A stretch of DNA of 64,000 nt from Octopus vulgaris (lineage: Eukaryota): assembly GCA_951406725.2 (NCBI GenBank), contig OX597835.1:24180001-24244000 (forward strand). Direction: 5' to 3'. This document shows, piece after piece, positions 4,317-62,886 of this stretch. The position numbers were made by a program, and so were the translations under genes. The notes below the pieces were generated by a model, which was not told the origin of the DNA, made no database searches, and was given only the letters and a program-made list of their open reading frames with translations. Numbering within the stretch: position 1 is the first letter of the stretch; the number at the start of each line of letters is the position of its first letter.

Positions 4317-4409
4317 TGTTATGATATTTAGTTGCAGCTTGTATTTTTTAGTGTTATGATAGGATATTTATTTAAGATATATATCACCCAGTGTACTGAT
4401 ATTTAGGTA

Positions 4410-5544: not shown

Positions 5545-5742
5545 GTGATTGCTGCTGAAGGTGAACAGAGGGCCTCTCGTGCCTTGAAGGAAGCTGCTGA
5601 CATCATGTGCGAGTCACCTGCCTCTCTGCAACTCCGTTACCTCCAAACCCTCAACACAATCTCCGCCGAGAAAAACTCCACCATCATATTCCCGCTACCC
5701 ATTGAGGTTATGAGGAACTTCATGCAGCCTCAGTCCCACTAA
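5545..5742 (+). CDS. Stomatin-like gene, last coding exon
   Basis: cttcctcag acceptor; VIAAEGEQRASRALKEAADIMCESPASLQLRYLQTLNTISAEKNSTIIFPLPIEVMRNFMQPQSH*, including the LQLRYLQTL and STIIFPLPI motifs. Confidence 0.97.
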   Translation: MIAAEGEQRASRALKEAADIMCESPASLQLRYLQTLNTISAEKNSTIIFPLPIEVMRNFMQPQSH

Positions 5743-16694: not shown

Positions 16695-17145
16695 ATATAT
16701 GTGTGTGTGTGTGTTTGTATATTGTATATATATGTATGTTGTGTGGATATGTGTGTGTGTGTTTGTATATTGTATATATATGTATGTTGTGTGGATATAT
16801 ATGTGTGTGTGTGTGTTTGTATATTATATATATATGTATGTTGTGTGGATATATGTGTGTGTGTATATTATATATATATGTATGTTGTGTGGATATATGT
16901 GTGTGTGTGTGTGTTTGTATATTATATATATATATGTATGTTGTGTGGATATATGTGTGTGTGTGTTTGTATATTATATATATATGTATGTTGTGTGGAT
17001 ATGTGTGTGTGTGTTTGTATATTATATATATATGTATGTTGTGTGGATATATGTGTGTGTATGTTTGTATATTATATATATATATGTTGTGTGGATATAT
17101 GTGTGTGTGTGTTTGTATATTATATGTATGTTGTGTGGATAAATA
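16695..17145. repeat. Compound minisatellite, about 45-bp unit (tatatgtatgttgtgtggatatatgtgtgtgtgtttgtatatta)
   Basis: About ten units with variable (TA)n/(TG)n lengths. Confidence 0.9.
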
Positions 17146-17435
17146 TGTGTGAGGAATGTGTGTGTACATGTATATCTATGTGAGGTATGTGTGTATATAT
17201 ATGTGTATGTATGTATATGTAATTGCTTTTTGTGCCTGCTGTTTCTTTCCTTTAGTGTTTATCTTTTTCTTTGCTTTTGTATGTTTTGTTACCCAGGTTT
17301 TATATATGGTATGATATAACTCTTTAAACAGATCAATACAACACACACACATACATGCACATTTTTTCTATTAAAAATAGCATTTTGATTGTGTGTGTGC
17401 ACATGTCATATGCATAAAATACATTACGGACATTA

Positions 17436-17477
<42 letters not shown>

Positions 17478-18427
17478 TGCGTGTGCCCACAGACACATTT
17501 ATACATTTGCAAACAGGAAAGTAGAACTCAAAACATGAGTTTGTGTATATAAATATTTTATCATTAATGATCGGCAGAAGTTGCAGAGTGACTCAAGGGC
17601 CAAGAGTTTCAATGCATGAAATTCTGGGCCCTTAGATCACTCTGTAACTTCTATTCATTAATAATAATAATAATAATAATAAGTTTTTCTACTAAAGGCA
17701 CAAGGCCTGAAATTTGGTGGGAAGAGACTTGTCAATCATATCGAGCCCCAATTTTTTTCACTGGTACTTAATTTATCGACCCCCCTGAAAGGATGAAAGG
17801 CAAAGTCTACCTCGGAATTTGAACTCAGAATGTAGTGATGGGTGAAATACTGCTAAGCATTTCATCCAGCTTGCTAACCTCTCTGCCAGCTCGCTGCCTT
17901 ATTTGATAATAATATTAATAATTATCACCATTTAATGTCCTTCTTCTATTGCATAGCTTTCAGAGTCATTGGGGTATGCAAGCCACCACATCACAACAAG
18001 GATTGGACCATGTGGTAGATTACAGAACTAATTGTTGACCAACATAAGAGGTCAGTGTAATATGCTAAGGGGCTGCTAGAGTAAATACCTGCGATATTTA
18101 GTTGTCTCTGTAGCCATCCTAGTTTCAAATCATACCAAGTTCAACATTGCCTGTTGTCTCTTTTAGAGACAAAATACCATTCATGTTTGTCCAGTATTGA
18201 TTAAATCCCTCCCCGCAACAAACATGTAGCATTGTGTTAAAGTTAGAAATGAATACATTACTGTATAGAATTTGCTTAAGCCATCTGGCTGTGTTGTTAG
18301 CAAACTTGCTTCCCAACCATGTAGTTTTGGGTTTGATCCTAGCTTGAGTAAATCTCTTCTGCTATAGCCATGGGCTGACCAAAGCTTTGTGAACACATTT
18401 GATTAACAGAAACTGAAAGAAGCCTAT

Positions 18428-18850
18428 AAGGTGGCGAGCTGGCAGAAACATTAGCATGCCAGACGAAATGCTTAGCAGTATTTCATCTGCCGTTACGTTC
18501 TGAGTTCAAATTCTGCCGCGGTCAACTCTGCCTTTCATCCTTTCGGAGTCAATAAATTAAGTACCAGTTACGCACCGGGGTCGATGTAATTGACTTAATT
18601 CCTTTTTGTCTGTCCTTGTTTGTCCTCTCTGTGGTTAGCCCCTTGTGGGTAGTAAAGAAATAGGTATTTCATCTGCCATTTCATTCTGAGTTCAAATTCC
18701 GCCAAGGTTGACTTTGCCTTTCATCCTTCCGGGGTCGATAAATTAGATACCAGTTACGCACCGGGGTTGATGTAATCAACTTAATCCCATTGTCTGTCCT
18801 TGTTTGTCCCCTCTGTGTTTAGCCCCTTGTGGGCAATAAAGAAATAAGAA
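18428..18850 (+). mobile_element. SINE family A, head-to-tail dimer
   Basis: A full copy followed by a 5'-truncated copy; inserted into a SINE B at gaaactgaaagaagcc (duplicated at about 18409 and 18848). Confidence 0.85.
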
Positions 18851-19619
18851 ACTGAAAGAAGCCTGCCATTTCATATATGCATATACATATGTAAGTATGC
18901 ATGTGTAAGTTTGTATGTATGCATGTATAAGCATATGTATATGAATGTATAAACGAGTGTGTGTTAGTGTCTCCTTGTCTTGATATCACATTGGCTGTAA
19001 ATGAGTTTCACCATCATACAAGCAGTGTCATTAATTTCCAATCTTCCTTGAAAACATGTCCAGCCACAAGGAAATATTACCTTCACTTGGAAATAGATGA
19101 AGGTTTGTGATGGGAAGGACATCCAGCCATAGAAAATCTACCTCAGTAAATTCTGTCCAACCCATGCCAGCATGGAAAAGTGGGTGCTAAAACGATGATG
19201 ATGATATATGTATATTCTTTTAAAATTACATCAGAAACTTGTTTTCTATAAAAAAATATTTTTTCCTTTTCTTTTGTATTTTTGTCAACAACTTACCTCT
19301 ACATTATATTACAACCTGTTTCTACATATTTCTAAGCTGGCCTTGAGGTGTCAAATAAACCTATATGTTGCTTGCGTGTTGCAGTATGGCCAGGCTCAAA
19401 AATAAAGAAATTAAATTTCTCCATGGCAACATTTCTAACAAGTATACATTGTGCTTCAGTTAATTAACCATTTGTAAAGATTTAGCTAAAAAAAAAAAAG
19501 AAAAGAAAGAAAAAAAAGACCTTATAAAATTATATCAAAACAGTGTTTAAAGAATAACTTAAAAAGACAAGCATTATTGGTACGTTGGCATATTAAGGTG
19601 GCTGTTTGAAACATAACTG

Positions 19620-20012
19620 CGCAGGAATGGCTGTGTGGTAAGTAGCTTGTTTACCAACCACATGGTTCCGGGTTCAGTCCCACTGCATGGCACCTTGGGC
19701 AAGTGTCTTCTACTATAGCCTCGGGCCGACCAAAGCCTTGTGACTGGATTTGGTAGACGGAAACTGAAAGAAGCCCGTCATATATATGTATATATATATA
19801 TATGCGTTTGTGTGTCTGTGTTTGTCCCCCTAGCATTGCTTGACAACCGATGCTGGTGTGTTTATGTCCCCGTTACTTAGCGGTTCGGCAAAGGAGACCG
19901 ATAGAATAAGTACTGGGCTTACAAAAGAATAAGTCTCGGGGTCGAGTTGCTCGATTAAAAAGGCAGTGCTCCAGCATGGCCGCAGTCAAATGACTGAAAC
20001 AAGTAAAAGAGT
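19620..20012 (+). mobile_element. SINE family B, near full length
   Basis: Complete head-to-tail match to the copies at 41542 and 47602. Confidence 0.85.
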
Positions 20013-20089
20013 ATTGCTGTTCACTGGTATATTAATATGGTGTTTGGAACAATGGAAGACAGACGTATATTGGTACGTTTAGCTGTTTT

Positions 20090-20690
20090 TCTGCCCCGTG
20101 TATAATGTGATACATGGGACATATTTTCTTGGCATCCATGCATCATATATCACACATATTACCAATTTTTTTCGACCACCAGAGAGTAACTTGGGGCTTA
20201 TGAAAGGAAAGCATTATGTTATTCAAAACTTATGAAACAGCGTTCACTAAAAATCTGAAAATGAGCAAGGATATGTGTGTGTGTTTGTGTCTGTGTTTGT
20301 CCCCTACCTTTGACCTTTCACCTGTTTCATGTATCACATGTGATGCACAGGACATATTTCCCTGGTGTCCACGCATCGTATATGATACACGTTACGAATT
20401 GTTTTTCAACCACCAGAGAGTAATTTTAGACTTAGGGAAGCTTTATATTGCTCTGAACATATGAAACAAGGGTTAACTAAAAGTTTAAAAGCAACCCTAG
20501 ACCCCTTTAGCCCTTTGCCTTTCCTGTTTATCACATGTGATGCACAGGACATATTTCCTTGATGTCCATACATCATATACGATACACATTACCAAATTTT
20601 TCCTCCATCACCAGAATAACTTAAGACGTAAAAAAGGGAAGCTTTACATTACTCGGAATGTATGAAACGAGGGCAAATGGAAAAGTCTGG
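20090..20690. repeat. Three diverged ~200-230 bp direct repeats, probably transposon-internal
   Basis: tgtgatgcacaggacatattt...caccagagagtaa...tatgaaaca occurs three times. Confidence 0.6.
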
Positions 20691-20999
20691 AAACAAGAAT
20701 GGGTGTTTCCAACAAACTTATGAAAATACTTTGGTCAGTAATATTTGGCAGCTAGTTGTCTTAGGAATGTTGGTCATGAAAGAGTCCAATTAGTGACCAA
20801 AGAAATTACATATGATGAATTTTCTGTAATTTAAATCTGTTTGGTTCTGTAACCCTCTGGCAGAATGTTCCATCCAGAGAAAATCAAACACTTGGTTTTT
20901 TGGTTTTTTGTTACTTACCTCCCACTGCCTTCAATTTAATTATAGTTTGAAGGTGTAATAATCCTGCTAAAGACAGATGCCATTATTTAAGTGTAGAGA

Positions 21000-21910
21000 A
21001 AGCGGCAAGCTCACAGAATCGTTAGCATGTGGGCAAAATGCTTAATGGCATTTCGTCTGCCTTTATGTGCTGAGTTCAAATCCCACTGAGGTCACCTTTG
21101 CCTTTCATCCCTTCAGGGTTCATAAGATAAATACAAGTTGTGCATTGGGGTTCAATCTAACCAACTTACCCCCTAAATTTACTGGTCTTATGCCAGAATT
21201 TGAAACCCTTATTTAAACATGGAGAAGGCAGTGAGTTGGTAGAGTCCTTAGTATGTCAGCCGAAATGGTTAGCAGCCTTTCTTCTAGTTTGTTATGTCCT
21301 GAGTTCAAATACCATCAATGTCAGCTTTGCTTTTCATATTTTGCATTGATAAAATAAATACCAGTCAAATATTGGAGATTGGGGGAGGATTAATGTGATC
21401 AACCACCCTCTTTTCCTACAATTACTGGCTTTGTGCCAAAATTTGAAAGAATTTAAAGCTGGTGAACTAGCAGAATTGTTTAGATGTGGGGACGAAATGC
21501 TTAGTGGCGTTTCTTCAGACTCTTTATGCTCTGAGTTCAAATTCCACCGAGGTCAACTTTGCCTTTCATTCTTTAGGGTTGACAAATTAAGTGCCAGTTG
21601 AGTGCTGGGGTTGATGTAATCCACTGACCGTCCCACCAAAGTTTCTGGCACTTGTGCCTCCAGTAGTAAGCATGATTATTACTGAGGTGGTCAGCTAAGG
21701 CAGCAAGGTGGCAGAATAGTTAGCACACCAGGTGAAATCTTAGCAGTATTTTGTCTGTCTTCATGTTCTGGGTTCAAATTCTACTGATGTCGATTTTGCC
21801 TTTCATCCTTTCAGGGTTGATGAATTAAGTACCAGTGAAAAACTGGGGTTGATGTAATTCACTAGTCTCCTTCCCACACAATTTCAAGCCTTGTGCCTTT
21901 AGCAGAAAAG
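21000..21910 (+). mobile_element. Cluster of four diverged SINE A copies
   Basis: Repeated ctgagttcaaat...gcctttcatcc cores, all on the + strand. Confidence 0.75.
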
Positions 21911-22242
21911 ATTATATACTATACATGTAGGCCACAGACAAATGCAAAAATAATAAGAAAAAAAAAGAATAAACAAAAATACATCAAAAGTAGGTTATTA
22001 CAAATAAAAGTTTTGATTTAGATTAGAGACTGGCAATGCTGTGATAGATTTCATAACAATCAATTTATTTTAAAAGCATTTAAAATCAGGCATAGTTGCG
22101 TGGTTAAGAAAGTCACTTTTCAACTACATGGTTCTTGGGTTCAGTCCCATTGTACAGCACCTTGGGCAAATGTCTTTTAGTACAGATCTAGGTTGATCAA
22201 TGCCTTCTGTATAAATTTGGTACATAGGAATTGTGTGCAAGC

Positions 22243-22275
<33 letters not shown>

Positions 22276-22669
22276 CAGCAGCACCATTATTGTTTAACAT
22301 CTGCCTTCCATGCTGGCATGGGTTGTACAGTTTAACAGAAGCTGGCTAGGCAGGATTCTGCATCAAACTTCTGTGGCTGTTTTGGCATGGTTTTTACAGG
22401 TGGATGCCCTTCCTAACACCCACCCAACAGGTGTGTCCTTGTATTTGCCCCTCACCACTTCAGTTTTTTGCTCAAGAATACAGCGCATTGCCCTGTCCAG
22501 GGATCATCTAAGCCAGGAAGGGCTCACCCTTCCTGGAGTGATGTAGGTTTGTGAGATGAAAACCTGAAAACGTAGATTAGTACAATCAAGTCAGATCCTG
22601 AATTGATATCTGGTCCTTGCGTATATGGTCTGGGCTGTCTTAGCAGTATTATAGGCCTCAGGAAAAATC

Positions 22670-23180
22670 AGTGCATTGGACCCCATACTATTTATTCATT
22701 GACACCTAGCCACAGCATACATAGATCAGAATTGAGGCCCCTGTGGAAATCAGTTGACTGGGCCCTATAGTATGTATTTATTGTTAGCAAACCACAGCAC
22801 AGATAGATCAGAGTTGGGCCCTTAGATTTCTGAGACAAATCGCTGCACTGAGTCCTATAGCATTTATTGACAGTAAGCCACAACATACATAGATCAGAAT
22901 TGTGCCCTGTGAGGCCCCTGAACAAATCAGTTTACTAGGCCCTTTAGTACTTATTTATTGACTGCAAGCTACAGCATATATAGATTAGAATTGAGGCCTT
23001 AGATTTCTGAGACCCTCTATGTAGTTAAATCATTGCACTAAGCCCTATAGTATTGATTGATAGTAAGCCACAATATACATAAATCAGAATTTGGCCCTTA
23101 GACCTGAGAAGCCCAAGGGCAAATCAATTTACTGGACCCTATAGTATCTATTTTATTGACAGCAAGCCACAGCATATATA
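22670..23180. repeat. Degenerate ~70-85 bp tandem repeat
   Basis: gccacagcatacatagatcagaattgaggccc...aaatca...ccctatagta repeated about six times. Confidence 0.7.
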
Positions 23181-23185
23181 TAGCT

Positions 23186-23417
23186 TAAGGTGGCGAGCTG
23201 GCAGAAACGTTAGCACACCGGGCGAAATGCTTTCCAGTATTTTGTCTGTCATTACGTTCTGAGTTCAAATTCCGCCGAGGTCGACTTTGCCTTTCATCCT
23301 TTTGGGGTCAATAAATTAAGTACCAGTTTCGCACTGGGGTTGATGTAATCGACTTAATCCCTTTGTCTATCCTTGTTTGTCCCCTCTATGTTTAGCCCCT
23401 TGTGGGTAATAAAGAAA
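23186..23417 (+). mobile_element. SINE family A, young copy
   Basis: Near-consensus sequence, flanked by a catatatatagct direct repeat (TSD). Confidence 0.88.
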
Positions 23418-23489
23418 CATATATATAGCTGAAAATTGGTCCCCTATATAGGAAACTGCCCTGTGTTTACAAGCCTTAAGATGACCCTG

Positions 23490-24490
23490 TATATGGTGTC
23501 CACCACTAGGACAATCTCCATCTTGGGTACCTGTGATTACAGAGCAGGTTCAGTTTTAGTTCACAGTACTGTAGCCTTGCTGGTTGCAGCTGGCTTCACC
23601 CACCCTGGATGGTTGTTGACATGGGTTCAAAGTACAAGTAGGTACTTCTAAACAGATGTTGCCTCTCTGTCTTCATACCACAGGAAAAGGTGTGAATCCC
23701 ACTTTTCCTATCGTACTAGTGATTCCCATCCAGAATATGTACACCAGGGAAACCAGGAAACCAGCTCTATGCTCGTCATGGAATAATGTGGACTAATCAA
23801 CTTTATCACTCTAAATATCTAATCAACCCCAATCACTCTTGCCATACCCCCACCCCTTTGAAAAACTTAATTCTTCAATCTGGATCATCTTCATTGAGAC
23901 CAGAGATTATTCTTGGAATGGAACTTTTCCAATGATGATGCTGTGCTTGGAAGAACTTGATTTTGAAATTCCTCTCTCTTGGATCACTTGCTGCACAGAC
24001 TTTCTTGAACTCTGGCAATACATTTCTGGTACCCTTTCATGCTTTGTGGTGTTCATTGATGCCTGCAGCCTTCTGGAATGTTTCTTGTGGGCATTTTGAA
24101 TGGTTCCATCCACTACAAACTTTAATCCAACTCCAGTGATGGTCATGTATGTGGATTGTCTAAGACTCCATTTTAAATTGTCTTTGCCATTTGACTGCCA
24201 TTTCATCCTTTCAGTAGCAATTTAGTATGAATTTCTTAGTTTGGCTCCCTTCATTATTGCTTAATGAGTTATCCCACTAATTTTGGCTTTACCTTTCATC
24301 CTATCCAGGTTGATAAATTAAGTACCAGTTATGCACTGGGGTCATGTAAACAACAAGACCCCTTCCCAAAATTTCAGGCTTTGTGCCTAAGGTAGAAAGA
24401 ATTATGTCTAATGGGCTAAATCTAAAATTAAATTAAAATTGAGTTAACAGTTGTTAAAATGTGCATAAATTTTTTTTGAGACTCTGTGTA
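23490..24490 (-). mobile_element. Degraded Tc1/mariner-superfamily transposase remnant
   Basis: Minus strand gives KF..GTIQNAHKKHSRR...S.RKSVQQ...GISKSS and, after a frameshift, LNEDDPD*R, typical of the Tc1/mariner N-terminal HTH and linker; multiple stops. Confidence 0.6.
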
Positions 24491-24719
24491 TATATTTTAA
24501 AAAGAAAAACATCAGGTTTATTTCACCTATTTCTGAACAATTGAACAAATTGGTTTCTTTAAACATTTTTTTGGTAATTCTTTTGTTATACCCAACATTA
24601 AATTTTCTGTTAGCATAAAAACTTTTATTTGGTTGACATTGACTTTTTTAGAGATGAAAAAGCATGAAAAATATTTCTTTATAAGAGCAAATAAAAAAAT
24701 CATCATCATTATTATTTTA

Positions 24720-24764
<45 letters not shown>

Positions 24765-25897
24765 GAGGTGGTGAGTTGGCAGAACCGTTAGCATGCTGGA
24801 TAAAATGCTTAGTGGTATTTCACCCATCACTATGTTCTGAGTTCAAATTCTGCTGAGGTCAACTTTGCCCTTCATCATTTCGGGGTTGATAAACTAAGTA
24901 ACAGTTGAGTCCTCGAGGTCGATGTAACTGAGTAGACCCCTCCCACAAATTTCAGGCCCTGTACCTTTAGTAGAAAGGATTTGGTAGAAAGGATTATTAT
25001 TATTAATATCATTGTTATTATTGTTATTATTATTAAGGTGGCGAGCTGGCAGAATAGTTAGCACACTGGATGAAATGCTTACAATGTAGTGAATGGTGAA
25101 ATACTGCTAAGCGTTGTGAGTTCAAATTCCACTGAGGTTGACTTTGCCTTTCATACTTTCAGGGTCGATAAGTTAAGTACCAGTGAAACATTGGGGGGCA
25201 ATGTAATCAACTAGTCCCCTCCCCAAAATGGATGCCCTTGTGGAAAAATTTGAAATGATTATTATTATTATTAATGAAGATGATAGCAAAAATTAAGTGT
25301 ATGTCTGAACACTTTGGATATTCTTCTTTAGTGTTTAAACCGGCCATATCTGGCCCAGATATTCTACATGTTTTATATTCAAATTGGCCATATCTAGCCC
25401 CTCACACCTAACCTACATTGACATTCTAAAAATAAACAATCACATCATTGAAACCTCAAAGCTATAAGATAATGCCAGATTAATTCAAAACAATTTGAGT
25501 GAAAAAGTATTACATTTAACAGAGTAATCTGAACACTAAAGGGTTAAAATGGAAAGTTTTGTGTGAAACAAGATTAAGAATCACATCAGGACATCACTGA
25601 ATGGATTTAAAAGAAGATTTAAGACTGAGATACAACTTTCTCTGTGATGAAATGTTTTAAAAGTTGTTGATTGGCTGAAATGTGAAAGAGTGGTGATGAT
25701 GATGGTGGTAGTGGTGGTAATGGTGGTGGTGGTGGTGGTGGTGATGGGGATAATGGGTATTAAGATTTAAGTGTGTGTGTGTGTGGGGGGGGGAGAATTT
25801 CTAGAATCTGACTGTGTGATAAAAATGATGCTTTTTTATATAATTTCTGCTGTACATGTTACAAATATTTTGTGAAATAATGTAGGCTTTACACTGC

Positions 25898-25935
25898 TTT
25901 ATATATGTATATATATAAATATATATGTATGTATG

Positions 25936-25975
<40 letters not shown>

Positions 25976-27215
25976 ATGTATGTATGTATGTATGTATGAA
26001 TGTATGTATATGCATATATATGTATGTATGTATATGTATATATATGTATGTATATATGTATATATATATGTATGTGTATATATGTGTGTATATATATATG
26101 TATATATATGTATGTATATAGATGTATATATATGAATGTATATATGTATGTGTATATATGTATATATATGTGTATATATATATATGTATATATATATATT
26201 TATATATGTATATATATATATGTATATATATATATATGTATGTAGGTATATATATGAATGTATATATGTATGTATGTATATATATGAATGTATATATATA
26301 TATGTATGTATATGTATATATGTGAATGTATATGTATGTATATATATGTATATGTATATGTATGTATATATGTATATGTATGTATGTATATATGTATGTA
26401 TATATGTATGTATGTATATATATGTATGTGTATATGTATGTATGTATATATGTATGTATATATGTATGTATGTATATATATGTATGTATATATGTATGCA
26501 CATATATGCATGTATATATGTATGCATATATACATATGTATGTATATGTATATACATGTATATATGTATGCATGTATATATGTATGCATGTATATATGTA
26601 TGCATATATGTATGCATGTATATATGTATGCATGTATATATGTATGCATATATGTATGCATGTATATATGTATGCATATATATATATATATATGTATGCA
26701 TATATATATATATATATGTATGAATATATATATATATATATGTATGAATATATATATATATGTATGAATATATATATATATGTATGAATATATATATATA
26801 TGTATGAATATATATATATATGTATGAATATATATATATATGTATGAATATATATATATATGCATGAATATATATATGTATGCATGAATATATATGTATA
26901 TGTATGTATATATATATGAATATATATGTATGTATATATATATGAATATATATGTATGTATATATATATATGAATATATATGTATGTATATATATATGTA
27001 TGTTTGTATATGTATCTATATATGTATGTGTATGTATATATATATGAATATATATGTATGTTTGTATATGTATCTATATATGTATGTGTATGTATATATA
27101 TATGTATGTGTATATATATGTATATATATGTGTATGTGGAAGTTTGTATATATACATGTATATGCTTATATACTTGTATACACATATATATTGAGTTTTT
27201 ATATATATATATAGA
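25898..27215. repeat. 1.3-kb compound (TA)/(TATG) microsatellite
   Basis: Almost pure alternating purine-pyrimidine; source of many spurious YI/HT ORFs. Similar tracts at about 6850-7200, 27460-27900, 31490-32015, 52400-52800 and 55250-55550. Confidence 0.95.
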
Positions 27216-32493: not shown

Positions 32494-33011
32494 ATATTAT
32501 GTTTGTATGTGTGTTATGATCCATCATGCTCTGTAAATCATATAAATAAAAACATTTTTCCTTCTTTCTCTCTTTCTCTCTGTTTTCATGATTCTTAATG
32601 TGTGAAGTCATTCTTAGCACTCCTTCCATCTTTTGTTAAAAAAAAAAAGAAAGAAAAAAAAAAGCAAATTGATTTTTTTTATACTTCAATCCAGTCCAAC
32701 AGCTGGCAGCTACACATGAACACTCACACACACACACACTCACAACATAGACACAAATGTTGGTATACATGTATATAAAATGCACACACACACACATATA
32801 TTTCTTTATTGCCCACAGGGGGCTAAACATAGAGGGAGCAAACATGGACAGACAAAGGGATTAAGTTGATTACATCGACCCCAGTGTGTAACTGGTACTT
32901 AATTTATGAAAGGTAAAGGATGAAAGGTAAAGTCAGCCTCAGCGGAGTTTGAACTCAGAACATAACAACAGATGAAATACCGCTGAGTATTTCGCCCGGC
33001 GTGCTAATGTT

Positions 33012-33240
33012 TTTGAGAAGTACAAGCCAGTAAAAGATGAGATTGTATGAATTTGGGCAATGAAAAAAATAACTGTCATCCGGTATCTGTTGGGGCATTG
33101 AGAGCATTAACAATGAGGGTTGAGAAATTTGTTGGAGAAATTGGGATTGACATGAGGGTAGAACATTCCCAGAAAACTACTTTATTCGGAGTTTTGAGGT
33201 TGGTACTTGAATGTGAAGTATCGTGGAAAGACCCAAAATA
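33012..33240 (+). mobile_element. RLE-type (R4/NeSL-like) LINE 3' fragment
   Basis: EKYKPVKDEI..IWAMKK.. then PVSVGAL....EKFVGEIGI...QKTTL, matching the KY..L...W....PVVVGALG restriction-like endonuclease tail. Confidence 0.65.
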
Positions 33241-34286
33241 TTGTCAAGGGTTTGGTTCTTTCCATTTCAATCTGCTTGACCACATAACCTCTTTCACTAA
33301 GGCCCCCAGACAGATAAACACTGCCTGTCCTTCATGGCAGCTGGAAAGTGGAAACCATCACAATAGATTCAACTGATTTCGAGAGCTGTTCTACAGATGA
33401 GAGCAGGCGTTTAGCATAATTCCACAAAAAGCACCATCTGATTGTGGCCGTTGCCAGCCTCGTCTGGCCCCCGTGCCGGTGGCACCTAAAAAGCATTATC
33501 CGATCGAGGCCGTTTGCCAGCCTCGTCTGGCACCTGTGCAGATGGCACGTAAAAAGTACCCACTACACTCACGGAGTGGTTGGCGTTAGGAAGGGCATCC
33601 AGCTGTAGAAACTCTGCCAGATCTGACTGGCCTGGTGCAGCCTCCTGGCTTCCCAGACCCCAGTTGAACCATCCAACCCATGCTAGCATGGAAAACGGAC
33701 GTTAAACGATGATGATGATGATGATGATGATGATTAATGCTTAGGCAGAACAGTTTTGTCATTCTGTGCATATGTTGGACAGGCCAATAATAATAATCCT
33801 TTCTACTATAAACACAAGGTCTGAAATTTTGCAGGGTGGGGCCCAATCAATTACATCAACCCCAGTGTGTATCTGATACTTATTTCATCGGCCCAAGAGG
33901 ATGAAAGCAAAGTTGATCTCAGAGGTATTTGAACTTAGAACATAAAGATGGCTGGAATGCTGCTTAGCCTGTATGTCAGCCAGATCAGGTGTAACCTGAG
34001 CTTAGACAACAGCAACAACTGAAATGGTCACTAACAACTGTAGAAATGAGAAGTGTCCCATTGAAGTTAACTATGTTCCCACATGACATCATCATGTGAA
34101 GGGTTACAGTTTACATTGCTGCGTAGTTGTCCCACTTGTGTGTTTTGCTTATGTTTGGCTATCAGCCGAAATTTGCTAGGATGATCCGGTTCCTGACTGA
34201 AGATTAGAGTCTTCGAATCACCCATCCGTTTTTTGTGTCGTCTCTTTCTGTATTTTGCGTTCTTGTCCCATTTTGTATTTTTATAC

Positions 34287-40759: not shown

Positions 40760-41140
40760 TGGCGGCGAGCTGGCAGAATCGTTAGCGCGCCGGGCGAAAT
40801 ATTTAGCGGTATTTCGTCCGTCTGCACGTTCTGAGTTCAAATTCCGCCGAGGTCGACTTTGCCTTTCATCCTTTCGGGGTCGATAAATTAAGGACCAGTT
40901 ACGCACTGGGGCCGATGTAATCGACTTAATCCATTTGTCTGTCCTTGTTTGTCCCCTCTGTGTGTAGCCCCTTGTGGGTAGTAAAGAAATAGGTATTTCG
41001 TCTGTCTGCACGTTCTGAGTTCAAATTCCACCGAGGTCGACTTTGCTTTTCATTCTTTCGTAGCCGAAACACTGGGGTCGATGTAATCGACTAGTCCCTT
41101 CCCCACAAATTTCAGGCCTTGTGCCTTTAGTAGAAAGAAT
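40760..41140 (+). mobile_element. SINE family A dimer
   Basis: Consensus-like copy plus partial second copy; flanked by a taattggtttagatat direct repeat. Confidence 0.85.
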
Positions 41141-41541
41141 AATTGGTTTAGATATGACCAACACGTGTTTCTGCAGCAATTCACCTCTAGCTATGTTCCC
41201 AAATACAGCTTGATTCAAGGCGTGTCCGCAAATGTGACTTGAAGTAGACTGAGTTTATTTGTGCATGGCTAACATATTTTGCTAGGTTACTATGGTTTTA
41301 GATAGAAAAAAAAGGAAGTGAAGGGGATATTTAGAAACCTGACATCCCTATAAAAATTAGCTTGTCTTCATCTCGATCTTAGGTTTTAGGACGAAACAGT
41401 CCTAGACCCTAAAATAGGTCAAAGTGTATTCTTCAGTGTTTTGTACAACAATTACGTACTAAATTAAATTTAAATGAAAAATAAATTGAATCCTATCAGA
41501 TTAAATTATATATATATATATATATAAATATATGTGTGTGC

Positions 41542-43398: not shown

Positions 43399-45508
43399 CA
43401 TCATGGCTCGGCTTCGCGCACGAAGATCAGGAAGGCTGTCCACGTCGCGTGCATGCACGCTCATGACTGACAAGTCCGATATGGGAAAGGCAGGTCCGTG
43501 AGCAGTGTCCACAGGCGAAGGTAACATCCGGTGTGGTGTCAGAGGCGGCTCGCGCCTTCCTCCTGCGTCTCTTGTCTTTAAGCGCGTCTCTTCTTTGTTC
43601 CTCAAACTTGCTGACTGCGTTGAAGATCGTGTGGCGCCAGACATCACGGTCCGCAGCCAGGTCTGACCAGCATTGGTGGTTAATTTGACATGCTGTTAGA
43701 GACTTCTTGAGGCAGTCTTTGTAGCACTTCCTCGGAGCTCCTCTCACTCGGTGGCCGGTGGAGAGTTCGCCAAACAGGGCAATCTTTGGAAGGCGATGGT
43801 TCTCCATTCTGGAGACATGCCCTGCCCATCGGAGGTGGTACTTCAGTAGCGTGGCTTCAATGCTGGGGATCTTGGCCCGCTCCAAGACTTCAATGTTTGT
43901 GACGAAGTCACTCCAGCGAATGTTGAGGATGGTGCGGAGACATCGCTGGTGGAAGCGCTCGAGGAGACGGATGTGACGGCGGTAAGTGAGCTAGGTCTCT
44001 GAGCCGTAGAGAAGAGTGGTGAGAACTACGGCCCTGTAGACACTGATCTTTGTTTTGTTCTTCAGGCCACCATTGTGCCAAACACGTTTGTACAATCTGC
44101 TAAAGGAGCTATTTGCCTTAGAAAATCTATTGTCAATTTCCTTGTCAATCCTTGCATCGGATGAGATGATGCAGCCCAAGTATGTAAACTGCTGTATTGA
44201 TTTCAGTTCGGTACCGCAGATAATGATGTGGGTTGGGCGGTATTCTTCTTGGGGTGTAGGTTGGTGAAGTACCTCCGTCTTCTTGAGGCTGACCTCCAGG
44301 CCAAAGAGCTGCGAGGCGTCTGCAAAGCAGGATGTGATGCACTGCAGAGCTCGCTCTGTGTGGGCGATAAGGACAGCGTCGTCTGCAAAGAGGTCTCGAA
44401 TCAACCTCTCCTGGGTCTTGGTGTGGGCTTGGAGGCGCCGTTGATTGAAGATACTACCATCCAGACGATACCTAACATACACCCCATCCTCATCCTCCAT
44501 ATCTTCAGTTGCATGCTTGATCATCATGCTGAAGAGAGTCGGTGCCAGGACGCAACCCTGCTTCACGCCGTTGGAAATGGGGAAGGGCTCCGACAGGTCA
44601 GCATTGAGTATGATCTGACCAGGTTGATTCTCGTGCAGCTGGATCACCATCTGTAGAAACTTGGTGGGACAGTCAAGTCGTTCCAGGATGAGCCATAGTC
44701 CTGTCCTGCTCACTGTGTCAAATGTTTTTGTAAGGTCGACGAAAGTAGCATAAAGTCCCCTGTTTTGTTCTCGGCACTTCTCCTGGAGTTGGTGGAGGAC
44801 GAACACCATATCCATTGTGCCTCTGTTGGCTCTGAAGCCACACTGGCTCTCGGGGAGGTTTTCTTCAGCGATGGTTGGTACTAGCCTATTGAGCAAGATC
44901 CTGGCAAGTACTTTGCCGGCGATGGAGAGTAGGGTGATTCCCTGGTAGTTGGAGCAGTCAGACTTTTCACCCTTGTTCTTGTACAGGGTTATGATGACGG
45001 CGTCGCGAAGATCCTGTGGCATCTTGCTCTGGTCCCAGCAGCAGACAAGAAAATCATGGAGCTTGTCATGGAGCATCGGACCTCCATTCTTCCAGATTTC
45101 TGGTGGGATGCCGTCAACTCCTGCTGCTTTGCGACTCTTGAGTTGTCCTATGGCTTCAATCGAGGGTGGGTGGTTTGTTGAGCTCCTCTTTGAGTGGAAG
45201 TTGAGGAATGCGAAGGATGGCAGCGTCCTGTACGGTACGGTTAGCACTGAAGAGGCCTTGGAAGTGCTTGGACCAGCGAGCGAGGATGGAGGCGTTATCG
45301 GTGATGAGGTCCTGTCCATCTGAACTGCGTAGGGGACTCTGGACCAGGTGGGTGGGGCCATACACTGCTTTCAGAACCTCATAGAAGCCGCTATAGTCTC
45401 TGAGGTCAGCACACAGCTGGGTTCTCCGCGCCAGGTGGTCCCACCACTCGTTCTGCATTTCTCTGAGTTTTCGCTGCAGGGTGTTGCAGCGAAAACAGCA
45501 CCCTGCAG
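43399..45508 (-). mobile_element. 5'-truncated, inactivated RTE-clade LINE (RT plus C-terminal Cys/His finger)
   Basis: RT motifs LPESQCGFR, FVDLTKTFD, GVKQGCVLAPTLF, FADD and FTYLG; finger CGHC..SHERAC; (ATG)n tail; 12-bp TSD TGTTTTGCATAT at 43387-43398 and 45509-45520; frameshift near 45160 and TAG at 43991-43993. Confidence 0.95.
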
Positions 45509-47002
45509 TGTTTTGCATATAATTTTAAGCTATCAACAATTTTGCCCAAGTTTTAATTTTAGAGTTATCTCCCTTACATTCTTTCACTATGAGAGTTATG
45601 TCCCTTGCACTTAGCAGAAGATTGATTAAGACCATCGATCAGTCAGATCATAAGTCTTCTCGCCATGATCACAGATTTTGTTTGCTTATTTTTACGGAAC
45701 AGTATATGAAATTTAGAAATATTCTAAAACATGGCTGTGTAGTTAAGAAGCTTAGTGGGAAACCACATGATTTCAGTTTCTCTTCCACTGCGCGGCGCCT
45801 AAGTTTTATTCAATGACAAAAACAATAAAAACAGTTTCTTGTTACTGCTTTTTCGTGTAAGTTGTCAGTTTTAAGTGCTATAAATAGTAGTATGTGTCGC
45901 TTTGTAGCCTTATGGCTTCGGATTTAATTTCACTGTGCAGTGCACTGGTGAAATGGCGAGCTGGCAGAATGCTTAGCGGGATTTCGTCTGCCGCTACGTT
46001 CTGAGTTCAAATTCCGCCGAAGTCGACTTTGCCTTACATCCTTTCGGGGTTGATAAATTAAGTACCAGTTACGCACTGAAGTCAATGTAATCCAAGGTTC
46101 AATAGTTTTTCTTTCAACACACGAATTCACATCAAGAATTTTGCACTCGTGCCCCGTGCTAGTAGGGTGCTAAGAGCACTATCTGAGCATGATTGTTGCC
46201 AGAACGGCTAACTGGCTTCTGTGCTAGTGGCATGTAAAAGGCACCATTCGAACGTGATTGTTACCAGCATCGCCTTACTGGTACCTGTGCCGGTGACATG
46301 TGTAAAAAGATTCGAGTGAGGGCGTTGCCAGTACCGCCTGACTAGCCCCCGTGCCAGTGGCACGTAAAAGCATCCACTACACTCTCAGAGTGGTTGGCGT
46401 TAGGAAGGGCATCCAGCTGTAGAAACTCTGACAGATCAAGTTTGGAGCCTGGTGCAGCCATCTGGTTCGCCAGCCCGCAGTCAAATCGTCCAACCCATGC
46501 TAGCATGGAAAGCAGACGTTAAGCGATGATGATGTGTGTATATCGAGTGAGCTTCTTTCAGTTTCCATCTGTGAAATCCACTCACAAGGCTTTGGTTGGC
46601 TGAGGATTACAATAGAAGACACCCAATGTGTCATGCAATAGCACTGAGCCTAAAATCACATGGTTGTGAAGTAAGCTTCATAATATATTCACATACATTT
46701 GGTGCATGAGGTATGAGTTCGATTCCCGGACTGGACTGTAGACTGTGTCCTTGAGCAAGGGACTTTATTTCACATTGCTCCAGTTCACTCAGCTGTAGAA
46801 ATGTGTTGCAATGTTACTAGTGCCAAGCTGTATCGGCCCCTTTGCCTTTCCCTTGGATAACATCAGTGGCATGGAGAGGAGAAGCTGGTATGCATGGGTG
46901 ACTGCTGGTCTTCCATAAACAACTTTGCATGGACTTGTGCTTCAGAGGGGAACTTTTCTAATTTCATGGTCATTCATGACCAAAAGGGGACTTTACTTTT
47001 TT

Positions 47003-55442: not shown

Positions 55443-56810
55443 ATATATACATCTGTTTATATATACATATGTGCATTTATATATACATGTGTGTGTGTGT
55501 GCATATATGTACGTATATATATGTGTATGTAAATATATATACACACACACATGCAAATCATTAGTACATCTAACACTATTATTATTAGAAAAGTAGATGA
55601 ATCAAACCTTAGACAAGACACACCACTCTACATAAATACATCACCATTGCATCCAGCAAAATTTGTATTGTGAATGTTAAAGAACTATCTTTCAGGCAAG
55701 ATGCAAACCTCTCCAGTATTTAAATTCATTCATAGGCCTAACACCATCTCTAATATGAATGCTACTCTACTCCACAATGGTAAAAAAAAAAAAATACACT
55801 CATTCCTCCCTTTAACGGATTTCGGAAGCAGGGGACAAAATTACGGCATATCAACAACACCTCTTCACCATCCATGGTAAGAGTGATTTTAAATTAAAAA
55901 TGTTGAGTTTACAGTATTTATAGAGTATATTTACAGTGTACAGGTATTTCACACTGTTTGATTGGAGAGTGTGCTGGATTAAAAGTACTGTGTTTATTCC
56001 TCTGTCTTTCGTAATGTAATTGTTGATATATTAGCCATCCCCAATGTAGTGCGGGTACCTATGGACAGTCGACTTCATTGGACCGATGTTCCTTGCTTTT
56101 AGTCCGTAGTACTGAGGTATGAGTGTACCTAGGTATATTAGTTTAAGATTTAGACACAAGGCCTGAAATTTGGTGGGAGGGGACAAGTCGATTGCATTGA
56201 CCCCAGTGTTCAACTGGTACTTGTTTTATCGACCCCGAAAGAATGAAAGGCAAAGTCGACCTCGGTGGAATTTGAACTCAGAACGTAGTGGGAGATGAAA
56301 TACCACCAAGCATTTCGCCCAGCGTGCTAACGATTCTGCCAGCTCACCACCTTAATAATAATAATAATAACAATAGTAATAAAATTTATGCTGAAGGTTT
56401 AAATTCTATTTCACACTACTGTATTAGTATAAAAAGGTTAACTAATACAAAATGATTAATTACTAAAATTTAGGACTAATTAGAAAATTTTCATTTAAAA
56501 AAGAGAATTTCCAAAGCTAAAACTATTTTCTGTGTGGAATTTGCTTCTACGTAAGAATTATAAAGATTACACGTTTATTCATATTGATAAGACAACGGTG
56601 CATTATGCAAATATTGTAATTCATAACATCCCTCAAACATTCAATAAATGTATTGATATGATATATCTCCAAACAGTTGTAATTATTAATAATAATAATA
56701 ATAATTATTATTTCTTCTGACTTTGTCTCAAGGCCACAAATTTAGGGGTAGAAAAGGTGAGAGTATAGGTGACTATATCGCCATCCCTTGTATCTGACTG
56801 GGGTATTTAA

Positions 56811-57117
56811 CATGTTAACTGCTACAGCCTGTAACCGGAACTTACCAGTGATGTCACTGATTTTATGTGATCACACTGATTACTGTTTAATTAGAAGGAT
56901 ATGCGATTTTTTTTTTTTTTGCATTTTTACAATATTTCACAATTAAACTTTAATATTTAGTACTCGCGTTTATTTAAATATCCTTGAAACCATGTCAAAG
57001 ATATAGAATAAAATACTTTCTCAAATTATCAAATTGTGCCACCAGTGGTGCATTTGGCGATGGAGGTTGCATGAACTTTGCAATGAACCATCAATGGTAC
57101 ATGTGGCAGTTAACGTG
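56811..57117. mobile_element. TTAA-specific (piggyBac-like) MITE nested in an old SINE A
   Basis: TTAA-CATGTTAACTGCTACA...TGTGGCAGTTAACGTG-TTAA (16-bp TIR, 2 mismatches); the flanks rejoin into SINE A sequence. Confidence 0.7.
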
Positions 57118-58679
57118 TTAATTTTATCAACCCTGGAAAGAGGATAAGCAAAGGTGACCTCAACAGGACACCAGCTTACATGTGAAGAGAACAGACATAA
57201 CAAAATAGCACAAGGTATTTTGTCTGTCTGTCTGTCTCTCTAACAATTCCATCAAACCTCTGACCTTGCATCCCAGTATTGGCTACAAGACCACAAATTT
57301 ACAAGGGAAAGGAATAACGAATTTAAAGGTTACCAGTTCTTGGCTGGTACTTAAATTTATTTTTCATTCAACCTCAATAGAATGAAAGGTAAAGTTGACC
57401 TTGATGAGAATTGAACAGAGAACACTAAATTCTGTAAGGCTTTTACTGAAACTACATACTAAAAAGATTTCATAAAACTACATATATATATAAGGCATTT
57501 ACTAAAACTACATACAAGTAAGGCTTTTAGCTTGGTGTTCTACAGTTTCTGCTAATTGCAAAGGATGTTAAATTTTCAAATATTTGTTTTTAAAATTCAC
57601 GTCTATTTAAATCACCATCAATTGACCAACAGAAATGTAAATTTACAGACCTATACTACTGAATCTGGCCTTTTCACTCTGCTCGCAAATACCCCTCTAA
57701 GTTTATGATCAACCAAACACTTCTTCTCAACACATTAGCATAATTCAAAACATTTCCCGCTTCGTTCTGTGTCACCATATTTCTAGGTTTAAAACTTTTC
57801 CACTGGGTTATGTTGCCATTTCATTCAAAAACTCCTTCACTTACTCCCACATGTGCTTAACATCTGAATACTTTCTTGGCTCACCTACATTCAAGTTTTA
57901 AGACAATCAATACATTTCACTCAAACACTTTGTAACTTCACTGCCTTCCATTCATTGGGCTTAACTCTTTAGTGTTTAAACTGGCCAAATCCGGCCCAAT
58001 ATATTCTACATATTTTATATTCAAACTGGCCATATCTAGCCTCTCACACCTAACCTACATTGACAGCCTAAAAATAAACAATCACATCATTGAAACCTCA
58101 AAGCTATAAGGTAATGCATGATTAATTCAAAACAATTTAAATAAAAAAGCATTACATTTAACAGAGTAATTTGAACACTAAAGGGTTAAATTTCTGATCT
58201 AACCTCTTTGGCCAACCTGCATTCAGATTCTGTAATGCTCGATTTATCTTAGTCAAACATTTCTTTGTTTCCACTCATGCCCGTTTAAAGCATTTTGGTA
58301 CCTACTATTCACAGATGGAAGCCAGCAGTAGTCTCTCTCTCATTCCTCATGTTCTCTTTTAATTATTTTGTCTCTCAAATATCCCCACAACACCTTTCAC
58401 TCTACACACATTTACCAATGCCGTATTTTATCCAAACATGTCAATATCTACAAATTTACTCATCTGCTTCTTCCTTGTCTTTTAATCCTTATTTTGGAGG
58501 AAGGAGCCACCATTAATGACGCCCTCTTTCGTCAAGCTTTAGAAAGCTCAGATCCCTGGTGTTCTAACAATGCTGCCAATCCAATACCGTCAAAGTAGAT
58601 CTTGGCCAGATTCCAACTTAGACTGAAAAAAGCCAGAACTATTACAAGGCATTTTTGTTCAAAATTTTGATAATAATAA

Positions 58680-59490
58680 TACCTCTTTCTACTGGAAGCA
58701 CAAGGCCTCAAATTTGGGGGAGGGGATTAAGTCGATTACATCAACCCCAGTGTGTAACTGGTACTTATTTAATCAACCCTGAAAGGAGGAAAGGCAAAGT
58801 CAACCGTGGCAAACTCAGAACATAGCGGCAGACGAAATACCGCTAAGCATTTCACTCAGCTTGCTAATGATTCTGCCAGCTTGCCACCTCAATATTAATA
58901 ATAATAATAATAATAACAATTTCAAATTTTGGAGGAGGGGGGTGTCGGTTACAGTGGTATTTATTTTATCAACCCTGAAAGGATGAAAGGCAAAGTCGAC
59001 CTCAGAACATAGCGATGGGTGAAATACTGTTAAGCATTTTGTCCAGCGTGCTAACGATTCTGCCAGCTTGCCACCTCAATAATAATAATAATAATAATAA
59101 TAATAATCCTTTCTACTAAAGGCACAAGGCCTGAAATTTGTGGGGAGGTGGTAAGTCAGTTACATCGACCCCAGTACTCAACTGGTACTTAATTTATCGA
59201 CCCCAAAAGGATGAAAGGCAAAGTCGACCTTAGCAGAATTTGAACTCAGAACGTAGTGGCAGACAAAATACCATTAAGCTTTTTGCCCAGAGTACTAATG
59301 ATTATTACCAGTTCACCACCTTTAATAATAATAATAATAATATTAATTATAATAATGGCTTTTCTGATTTGGGCACAAGGCCAACAATTTTTGAGGAGAG
59401 GGGCTGGGGAGTCAATACAGTTGACCCCAGTAATTGATCGGTACCTAATTTTATCAATCCCAGAAAGGATGGAAAGTAAAGTTGATCCCA
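58680..59490 (-). mobile_element. Cluster of SINE A copies separated by (AAT)n (further minus copies at 56150-56355 and 60980-61700)
   Basis: Repeated ggatgaaaggcaaagtcgacc cores, all on the minus strand. Confidence 0.8.
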
Positions 59491-60441
59491 GAGGGATATA
59501 TAACGAAAATAAAGTCCACTCTGTTATATTTTACAATTGAGTGGCTGAAAATTAAACTTAGAAATTTTAACAAATCGTTCATTTTACAGCAGGGATATTT
59601 AAAAAAAAAAACAGGTTAAAAAACAATACAATAACAGAAATAAAACATATACATACTGTGTAGGACGGACCTAAGGTCAAAATCTAGGAAGCTCCAAAAA
59701 GGCAGGTCAAGAAATAGGACATTTTTTTTTGTCGTTTGTTTTATACAAATTTACGAAGCTTTCCTGTATGAAACCAATTAAACCAATTTTCAGTCAACAA
59801 CAACGGATATATTCCCTTCAAATTGGGAATTCATAAAATAATATAAATCCATTTTTTCATGAGGGAACGGAGAGATCTGTGAAATATCGGGTTCTTTTGC
59901 CGCTGCAGATTTTCGTCGGGGTCAAAATCAAGTTGTTTAAAATATAGAGATAAGATTTTCTTTTTTTTTTAGTTTTTGTTTTCAAGCCAAGGGAGACAAC
60001 TAACAAACCATTAATTCAAGGGAAACTACTCGCAAACAATCAAGTTATTTCTGTTGCTTTTATTTTTTTTAATGCTTTCAAATGGACGCCAACTCGTTAA
60101 AACATCGTTAACAGTTACTTCCCTTGAATACGAACCTCTGACTCAATCATACGTATTCTTTTTAGAGTTTCTTATCACTAAGCTTTGATGATGTTACAAA
60201 GGGTAACACACAAGCGTTCAACCATGACTGCATTACATCTTATAGAACAAACAGCTGTGAGCTAACGAACTTCATAACATAATTTACTGGTCATTTTAAT
60301 TCCTTATATACATACATATAACATGCTACTACTCTTTCTAGCACAAGGCTTTCCTATTTGGAAGCCTCTTATTGCATTACATATAACATACATGTATATA
60401 CAGACATAATGTATATATACATACACAATGTATATATACTC

Positions 60442-60652
60442 TTTATTTAAAGCAGCAGAAAATTCAACAAAACCTGTTACTCTGAGTTTCCTGTTACCGT
60501 TCCTAGCAAAAACTGTCCGATGAACGGCAACGGGAAACTCAGAGTAATAGGTTTTGTTGAATTTTCTGCTGCTTTAAAGAAAGCATATTACTCTATCACT
60601 GGAATTTGAGTACTCTTTTTTCCACCTTGTTTCACATTTATGTGTTTACTCC

Positions 60653-60655
<3 letters not shown>
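60442..60655. mobile_element. Penelope-like pseudo-LTR foldback, family H1
   Basis: About 60-bp inverted arms plus an unpaired tail homologous to 9503-9575; abuts (TA)n. Confidence 0.65.
60507..60556 (+). ncRNA. Minimal type-I hammerhead ribozyme motif (variant core)
   Basis: CAAAAACUGU-CCGAUGA-ACG GCAA CGG-GAAACUC A GAGUA-AUAGGUUUUG; GUA cleavage triplet intact, with a U4C change and one stem II mismatch. Confidence 0.68.
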
Positions 60656-60690
<35 letters not shown>

Positions 60691-62676
60691 GGTGACTGAA
60701 CCAGCTTCAACTCAGTCATTTGATCTGCTAGAAATAGCAGCTAAATATCTTTCCACTCAAACACAACTGACTTATATTAAAGGATACGTTGTATAGTGTA
60801 GTCTGTGATTTCCAAAGCCATTGTAGGAGGCTCAACGAAACACACGGACACACATCCTGGAATAACAAGATATAGTTTTCAATGAGATACAGTTTCCCTC
60901 ATATTACGTATGAGATTCATCTAGAAGACATTTGTTCGAAAACTATATTCAGGCGTAGATATAGTTCTTTATTGGTTTCATATTTTGGCACAAGGCCAGA
61001 AAATTCGGATGGGGGGAGGGGAGGTAGTAAGTCGATTACATCAACCCCAGTACGCAACTGGTATTTAATTTATTGACCCTGAAAGGATGAAAGGCAAAGT
61101 CGACCTCAGTGGAATTTGAACTCGGAATGTAGCAAAGGGCAAAATTCCACTCAACATCTTGTCCAGCATGCTGACGATTCTGCCAGCCAGCAGCCTTTAG
61201 TTGTTTATATATATCAATGTATAGTGGAGGTGGGGTGGGGAGAGAAGTAGTTTCAAGTTTTGACACAAGGCCAGCAAATTCAAGGGGTGATGGTAAAGTC
61301 AATAACGTCAACCCTGGTACTTTAACGGTCCTTTATTTTATCAATACTGAAAGGACGAAGGCAAAGTTGACCTTGCTGGCATTTCGACTCAGAGTGGAAC
61401 AAACTGAAAGAAATGCTACTAAGCATTTTGTCTGGAGTACTAACGAGTCTGCTAGTTTGCCGCTTCATAATAATTATAATTCTTTCTACTAAAGGCACAA
61501 GGCCTGAAATTTTGGAAGGTGACGCTCGTTGATTACATAGTCCCCAGTGTTTAACTGGTACTTATTTTATTGACCCCCCAAGAGGGATGAAAGGCAAGGC
61601 TGACCTTGGCTGGATTTGAACTTGGAACATAAACCCGCAAGAAATACCACTAAGCAGTTTGTTAGACTTGTTAATGATTCTACCATCTCACTGCTTTAAT
61701 TATCATAATTAATAATTGTTATGTTAGTAATGTTAAATGAAAATGCTATTGAAAATAATATCCATATAAATTGTTTAAAAACTTGAGTGTGTGAATGCGT
61801 GGACAGGTGTATGTGCATGCGTCTGTGTGTGTGTGTGTGTCCTTGTTTTTTTCTGTGTATCTTTCTGTCGAAGAGCGTAGGCTCGAAACATAAAAGACTT
61901 GTTCTATTTCTATTCCTGAGCACCATACAAATACATTTGTTTGTTTGTACTCCATCTGCCTTCGTCTTTTGTTAATTTTCGTAAACCTTCCCGTTATATA
62001 TATGAAATCCTGGGGAAGTTTAAAATTTCAATTTGTGAAGTTTGCATAATTTCAGTTCTAGATTTGATAAAATTCATCAGTAATGTTTTTTTTAGCAGCA
62101 AGATAAAACTATTTTATCATCAGCAATTATAATTTGTTTTTATATCAATTAATTATTCAAAGAACTTAATAATCACTTTGTATTTATTTCATAAGCTCGT
62201 ATAAAAGACTCCCACTTATTCAACTAAAACCCATTTTATATTTGACTAACAAGCCTGGAATATGGGATTCAGAATATAACTAGAAAAAAACTGCTGCATA
62301 ACAATGAGTAAATACAAAATGATTGTGGCCAGAATGACCGCAGGTATTTGAAGATTATATTCTCGAGATTAAATTCCTTTACTTATACTTCCTACAGATT
62401 AATTTAGCTGTATACAGATCTAAAGTTGTAGAAATTTAAACAAAGCTTTGACAATAGCCATAAACTATGTATATATAACTCTGTTACATGCATACACACA
62501 CACATATATATATCTTAGGTCCTGGTGGGGTATTTCCAGGGAAGCACTCACCCTGAGTTCTGAGCTGTCAACACTGTCAGATTCCTGACTGATAGCGAAA
62601 TTCTTCAAGTGTAGAAAATCCTAGTTTCACGATGGTGAAACTGTTTTGTTGGTGCAGTGAAGAGTAAGCTATAAAT

Positions 62677-62886
62677 CCAAATGAAGAGATTAAAGAAATC
62701 CTTTAACACATCTTTAATGATGCATTACAATTGTTTCTGTGCCAACTCTGCTTGCAACATCAGTTTACACAATATTCAAAGTGAAAATTTACATAGACTG
62801 GTGTTGAAAGCAGAGTTGGTACAGAAGCAATTGTAATGAATCATTAAAGATGTGTTAAAGCATTTCTTCATCCTATTATTTGGATC
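62677..62886. mobile_element. Foldback element with ~90-bp arms (family H5)
   Basis: ctttaacacatctttaatgatgcattacaattgtttctgtgccaactctgc versus gcagagttggtacagaagcaattgtaatgaatcattaaagatgtgttaaag. Confidence 0.7.

Follow-up and report, generated by a model that had tools for sequence, protein, structure and literature searches.

Does the repeat near 60.5 kb in this stretch of Octopus vulgaris DNA descend from a canonical hammerhead ribozyme in which each copy has acquired its own lesion, or does it belong to a lineage that has kept a damaged core? The window, that is, the whole stretch of 64,000 nucleotides that was analysed, is animal DNA and holds two full hammerhead-like copies that are 87% identical: copy B at 60507-60558 on the plus strand and copy A at 9649-9599 on the minus strand. 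A first-pass annotation had described both, with letters and coordinates that agree with the sequence. It proposed that their lesions are complementary and together reconstruct a perfect, dimer-cleaving ribozyme. The relationship extends beyond the motif itself, with 131 of 150 columns identical between the sense parts of the two copies.

In copy B, whose motif occupies 60503-60558 (+) as judged from the sequence, descriptor scans and family letters, the 5' strand of stem I extends to 60516. It is followed by the core CCGAUGA (60517-60523), with C3 at 60517 and a C at position 4, by stem II (60524-60533) and by GAAA (60534-60537). The near-palindromic stem III, CUC-A-GAG, lies at 60537-60545, and the triplet is GUA, its last base being 60546; the putative cut is 3' of A60546. 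In copy A (9599-9654, -), C3 is found at 9640 and the core reads CUGACGA. Stem II of this copy consists of A-U, C-G and G-C pairs closed by a GGAA loop; it is followed by GAAA, CUC-C-GAG and the triplet GCA, with a C at 16.1. Besides the lesions that had been listed before, copy B has a second defect, in that the basal pair of stem II, 60524/60533, is an A10.1.G11.1 mismatch. The same G11.1 is present in the inverted arm of copy B (60491) and is therefore derived from the template.

Descriptor scans bear out the hammerhead-like layout, which is of type I: three helices surround the core and the ends meet in stem I. This stem has 9 to 10 of 10 pairs, and stem III has 3 bp, to which A15.1-U16.1 is added in copy B. 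With a loose descriptor, applied to both strands of the window, copies A and B are the sole sites. Taken alone such a match proves little, as shuffled windows give 0.93 matches per shuffle and at least two matches in 24 of 100 shuffles. A stricter descriptor, which was fitted after both copies had been seen, gives 0.05 matches per shuffle, with at least one in 25 of 500 and at least two in none of the 500. The two copies are homologous and thus do not count as independent matches. The Rfam hammerhead models match neither at the gathering score nor at E values up to 10, and the other Rfam models give only sub-threshold matches to miRNA-type hairpins. An intact core (CUGANGA, GAAA and NUH) occurs in neither copy, A having GCA and B having CCGA, and the locus is therefore not classed as an active hammerhead.

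Whether the lesions are private to each copy or shared by the family can be read from public sequence. Of 24 public runs under two organism labels, all of them made up of contigs, 20 contained half or more of the sampled words, and four runs were aligned to 60300-60654 at 80% likeness (three DNA by guess and one, X1, RNA by guess). Summed depth at 60603 amounts to 0.65-1.25 million in the three runs guessed to be DNA, against 24-74 on the flank. The resulting ratio of about 16,000-27,000 is not a copy number. The repeat family is very abundant in two organisms. Pattern scans of DNA for further copies found none in metagenome contigs and none in viral contigs; four prokaryotic pattern matches were limited to 22-24 nt and were rejected as chance. 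Left of copy B, 60324-60371 has a depth peak of its own, up to 160,000, and is a fragment of another repeat.

Four changes are indeed private to copy B: at 60548, 60579, 60596 and 60603 another letter accounts for 97-100% of the depth, the replacement of G by T at 60579 for 97-99.9%. The C at 60518 (position 4) and the G at 60533 (position 11.1), in contrast, act as common letters. At 60518 no other letter, including a change of C to T, reaches 10% in any of the four runs, and U at 11.1 makes up 19, 9.5, 15 and 40% in the four runs, both arms being pooled. Contigs do pass through position 4: in two of the runs guessed to be DNA their mean depth is 0.33-0.47 million (bin 60504-60515). At the neighbouring 60521 the depth in the three such runs is 0.40, 0.50 and 0.77 million, or 32, 76 and 70% of the tail depth, so that in run X5 only 32% of the tail depth reaches this position. 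C4 cannot be private to copy B. At 60545 no row for an alternative letter appears in the contig runs, so GUA is the family triplet, and the GCA of copy A is a minority state.

The idea that the consensus is a canonical dimer-cleaving hammerhead, each copy with its own lesion, thus holds for the triplet only. GUA fits, and copies of the CUGA type exist beyond copy A: one contig from the organism labelled B combines the core CUGACGA and the loop GGAA, and a second contig has U11.1 together with GUA. Furthermore, the letter count is biased towards copy B, which served as the reference, and CUGA-type copies are under-counted because several nearby letters differ and short contigs may fail to align. 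This reference bias hides some of them. Nevertheless, the abundance of C4 in contigs that do span the core and the presence of G11.1 in both arms of copy B stand against the idea. A consensus that retains a lesion, which the first-pass annotation had itself set against its model, is what the public contigs give at position 4. The model is improbable, and the best reading is that C4 and G11.1 are common to most of the aligned family sequence, CUGA-type copies being a minority.

What these two letters would do to the ribozyme was assessed by folding; the models take no account of tertiary contacts or Mg2+, and all results are predictions. When the arm of copy B is left out and 60548 is set to the family letter, the predicted probability of stem II is 0.09, because the CCG of the core (60517-60519) pairs with CGG (60531-60533) on the 3' side of this stem. 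An alternative hairpin, in which the core would pair with the 5' side, was rejected at a probability of 0.1 or less. Restoring either position 4 or position 11.1 to the canonical letter raises stem II to 0.91 or 0.95, and with both canonical, stems I and II reach a probability of 1.0. This last result is the one that suits a canonical consensus. For the dominant C4/G11.1 form, little or no cleavage is predicted.

The near-palindromic stem III is suited to pairing between molecules, with a predicted self-duplex of -7.4 kcal/mol for B and -6.6 kcal/mol for A, each with one central mismatch. Dimer cleavage, as had been proposed for this locus and was already published for hammerheads of Penelope-like elements (PLEs) in the portion of PMC4209133 available, is thus plausible. 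It is not forced, because in copy B a shortened monomer stem III of 3 bp with a 3-nt loop is predicted to be about energy-neutral (0.4 versus 0.6 kcal/mol); the earlier statement that the monomer cannot fold was too strong. In co-folds of A with A, B with B and A with B, the predicted dimer minimum is lower in energy than the full double-hammerhead form by 5-6 kcal/mol. The minimum for A with B keeps the stem II of A, an intermolecular stem III, and a stem I made by the 5' strand of A with the GUA strand of B, so that in this model the enzyme half of A is largely formed on the GUA strand of B.

The origin of the repeat has to be sought in the anatomy of its insertions. Copies A and B each have an inverted 5' arm, a 3' tail of about 70 nt and TA-rich ends. 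The inverted, 5'-truncated arm of copy B (60440-60502, -) is identical to 60522-60584 in 58 of 63 columns. It covers the region between G8 of the hammerhead and a point shortly after AAUAAA, is devoid of the tail, and adjoins TA-rich sequence at its outer end. As a foldback the two arms, 60436-60502 and 60522-60588, are 91% complementary, with a fold z of -16.7. The putative 3' part of a pseudo-LTR (60559-60584, +) leads to a first family 3' end. It bears the family AAUAAA, in which copy B has its private G at 60579. The tail, at the sense end only (60585-60654, +), leads to a second family 3' end and is common to copy A and to a third copy. Behind it lies a (TA)n microsatellite (60655-60687, no strand assigned), the likely target as judged from the sequence.

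Copy A also has an inverted arm, which had been overlooked (9655-9678, +). It belongs to an inverted repeat of 9569-9610 with 9641-9682, in which the 42-nt arms give a fold z of -7.45. The arm meets the sense copy at stem I and lengthens that helix; the complementarity of stem I blurs the junction, and the inner coordinate is therefore approximate. The 3' part of its pseudo-LTR and its tail (9504-9598, -) give way to (TA)n at 9503-9489. In A as in B, the inverted arm stops at the first family 3' end, near the equivalent of 60584. The third copy, likewise missed before, is more diverged and consists of AAUAAA and tail only (92-170, +; 65 of 79 columns identical, blastn E 1e-16), with a TG/CA microsatellite directly after it. 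It is probably located in an intron of a stomatin-like gene, because it lies upstream of the first exon found. That gene, of the stomatin/band-7 type, is spliced and has exons at about 1876-5740 (+), with Pfam Band_7 and with motifs at 3898, 3931, 5626 and 5683; copy A lies about 3.8 kb downstream of it on the opposite strand.

The public contigs extend this picture. In four of four runs the loose ends before 60431 and behind 60650-60652 run into (TA)n. Among the 15 joints listed of 30, arm-to-arm junctions occur at many different places, for example 60460 to 60508, 60474 to 60521, 60486 to 60563 and 60490 to 60580. The outer ends of the repeat are thus fixed in these contigs, while the inner junction varies from copy to copy. 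The antisense arm is best read as a by-product of insertion because of this difference between copies.

Most of these features are known from PLEs. In the available portion of PMC8557442, an inverted 5'-truncated copy that adjoins the element's 5' end and a tail at one end only are described, and for the Naiad clade a (TA)n bias is given; the corresponding portion of PMC8969392 likewise reports the inverted 5'-truncated copy and the tail. For the Anolis element Poseidon, two start sites of reverse transcription bound the tail and targets are AT-rich (PMC11167929, in part). The insertions studied here share with these the inverted arm on the 5' side, the tail confined to one end, the pair of 3' ends and the AT-rich or microsatellite targets, with 5' truncation and an adjoining inverted, truncated copy in both A and B. 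They are unlike those described in these sources in that the tail is about 70 nt long instead of 30-40 nt and in that no coding region was found.

The hammerhead itself points in the same direction. The sections available of Cervera and de la Pena 2014 (PMC4209133) describe minimal type I hammerheads in PLE pseudo-LTRs, with a palindromic helix III. Activity is reported there to be absent in monomers, low in dimers and slow in vitro, and the copies to be mostly solitary, or in opposite-strand pairs 100-700 bp apart at truncated elements. Dimer cleavage is summarized in PMC6765202 and PMC6466107 as well, as far as the available parts go. The present motif shares with that group the type I layout, the short near-palindromic stem III, the U-rich strand 3' of stem I, and the occurrence as mostly solitary truncated copies with a second partial copy on the opposite strand. 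It departs from the PLE consensus given in that source, which has an extra base after A9, a G10.1-C11.1 pair and a long helix II, in that stem II is only 2-3 bp and starts with A10.1-U11.1 (A) or A.G (B). A kuruma shrimp PLE motif shown there similarly begins stem II with A-U and does not have the extra base. An odd central base in stem III and C4 in the dominant form are further differences from the minimal PLE hammerheads described in it.

On these grounds PLE membership is likely, as far as sequence anatomy can tell. The locus is probably a single copy from a repeat of very high copy number, which represents a 5'-truncated, 5'-inverted PLE end (pseudo-LTR plus tail), with a hammerhead that would stem from a dimer-cleaving PLE ribozyme and a dominant subfamily, copy B included, that is predicted to be impaired. 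No gene for a PLE reverse transcriptase (RT) with GIY-YIG was detected among the 41 window frames of at least 120 codons, two of which were scanned with Pfam; such a lack is expected for truncated copies. The window does hold an RT fragment of the LINE type at 43427-45524 (-), with a 459-codon open frame at 43991-45370 that matches Pfam RVT_1. We take this frame to be an RTE-like LINE, and as far as tested the fragment is unrelated to the hammerhead repeat.

An ATG at 60520, within the core of the hammerhead, starts a frame of 29 codons, which a stop separates from 15 further codons (60520-60654, +). The differences between A and B in loop II and in the loop of stem III are synonymous in this frame. 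Loose ends in the public contigs suggest a related subfamily that has a sense codon where this frame has its stop, and the frame may be the relic start of a PLE ORF. For the Anolis element the available portion of PMC11167929 places the start of the ORF in the hammerhead, and the ATG at 60520 lies close to the corresponding position. With the 45 residues of the frame as a query (X at the stop), word-index searches, the full representative library and Pfam gave no homologue, which is weak evidence with a query so short.

Could the repeat be something other than a PLE? It might be a MITE-like foldback, a SINE or a dispersed retrozyme monomer, with a motif that arose by chance or from another source. 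In accordance with such an origin, no PLE protein is linked to the repeat, Rfam gives no match and the loose descriptor is matched by chance. TA-flanked foldbacks are, moreover, typical of MITEs, and the present foldback is TA-flanked. A MITE does not explain fixed outer ends with variable inner junctions, a tail outside the inverted repeat, or the existence of copies that consist of the tail only. No tRNA-like head as in a SINE is evident, and the strict descriptor was rarely matched in shuffles, which argues against a chance motif. As to retrozymes, the available sections of PMC7229834 and bioRxiv 10.64898/2026.07.22.740005 define them as tandem repeats. The metazoan non-LTR retrozymes resemble the present family in being non-coding, in having a type I hammerhead and a high copy number, and in their proposed origin from PLEs. 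They are, however, head-to-tail tandems with canonical cores, whereas the three window copies are solitary, with no tandem units at any of the three loci, two of them are head-to-head inverted and the cores are damaged. All in all, an origin outside the PLEs is as improbable as a canonical consensus.

If the repeat is of PLE origin, a sequence of events can be proposed. The PLE RT/GIY-YIG protein would nick TA-rich DNA and copy the RNA, starting at two 3' points separated by about 70 nt. The product with the tail would become the sense arm and the product without it the inverted arm, and both would stop early and be joined head to head. This insertion mechanism is the most likely one on the basis of the anatomy and of published work on PLEs. 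Stem III would, in the ancestral element, join two tandem pseudo-LTRs as a dimer, which would be cleaved after GUA. Cleavage would be weak in the dominant subfamily, where C4 and G11.1 would allow the CCG of the core to pair with stem II on its 3' side. In copy B, moreover, the inverted arm would bury the cut site. The predicted fold of the whole copy agrees with the earlier suggestion that the antisense arm sequesters the 3' half of the motif, since the arm pairs with the cut site at a probability of 0.999 and the hammerhead stems, stem I included, have a probability of 0.0. Copy B is therefore likely inert, having a cut site that is predicted to be buried and no tandem partner.

Other repeats surround these copies. 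A long foldback at 62675-62885 (213 nt, 83% self-complementary, ending by a TC/CA microsatellite) gives no match to the hammerhead descriptor and is possibly an inverted insertion of another family. A second dispersed family with many partial and tandem copies was detected by self-blast at 20980-25274, 32799-33958, 40761-41147 and 56136-61752; it includes 60970-61750, just downstream of copy B.

The C4 form may still be active in vivo, because a viroid with U4C is infectious and the Anolis PLE hammerhead cleaves with the help of protein. According to the part of PMC3088659 available, U4C considerably lowers activity in vitro, yet the viroid stays infectious; the Anolis cleavage is described in PMC11167929, in its available part, as occurring only with protein help. 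It could thus be imagined that the repeat is of PLE origin and that C4/G11.1 is a working natural variant, helped by the protein of the element, folded with a shifted stem II (an extra A after A9 and a C10.1-G11.1 pair), or used as the substrate strand in a mixed dimer with CUGA-type RNA. The spread of C4/G11.1 to very high abundance would be in line with this, as would the extra base after A9, which is typical of PLE hammerheads, and the predicted minimum of the A with B co-fold. On the other hand, both changes push the folds towards a disabled core, the shifted register leaves a G.G mismatch, and the full double-hammerhead form is disfavoured in every pairing. Furthermore, the 56 PLE-type motifs in Fig. 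S3 of PMC4209133, a source available in part, begin with CUGA (53) or UUGA (3) and none has C4, a count that is biased because that search required the core. A working variant is therefore unlikely, if somewhat less so than a canonical consensus.

PLE hammerheads and their cleavage as dimers are already known, and this locus adds one family to them. PLEs occur in cephalopods according to PMC13282606 and PMC6962438, and the portions of these papers available hold no description of the 60.5 kb repeat family. In the literature search neither this family nor a PLE hammerhead with a C4 core came up in any paper, and Lunse et al. (PMC5785218) may cover such variants. The point of interest is the opposite of what was first claimed, namely that the dominant subfamily seems to have retained a core that is damaged. 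In the portions of the sources available, PLE hammerheads are slow in vitro (PMC4209133), and hammerhead mutants have no effect on PLE insertion in vitro (PMC11167929), so that the ribozyme is dispensable there. A family in which a single genome carries subfamilies of both kinds, with an intact and with a damaged core, allows these to be compared directly as to their age, copy number and cleavage.

It is tempting to speculate, with some reserve, that a PLE-derived subfamily reached a number in the order of ten thousand copies after two changes had made the hammerhead core a dead hairpin, and that the rarer RNAs of the CUGA type could still act in trans, cutting the abundant C4-type RNAs in mixed dimers. 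If mixed dimers do occur, the complementary lesions of the first-pass annotation would complement each other between molecules and not in the consensus. If the subfamily did spread after the death of its core, it would offer a natural, genome-scale demonstration that retrotransposition of the PLE type needs no self-cleavage.
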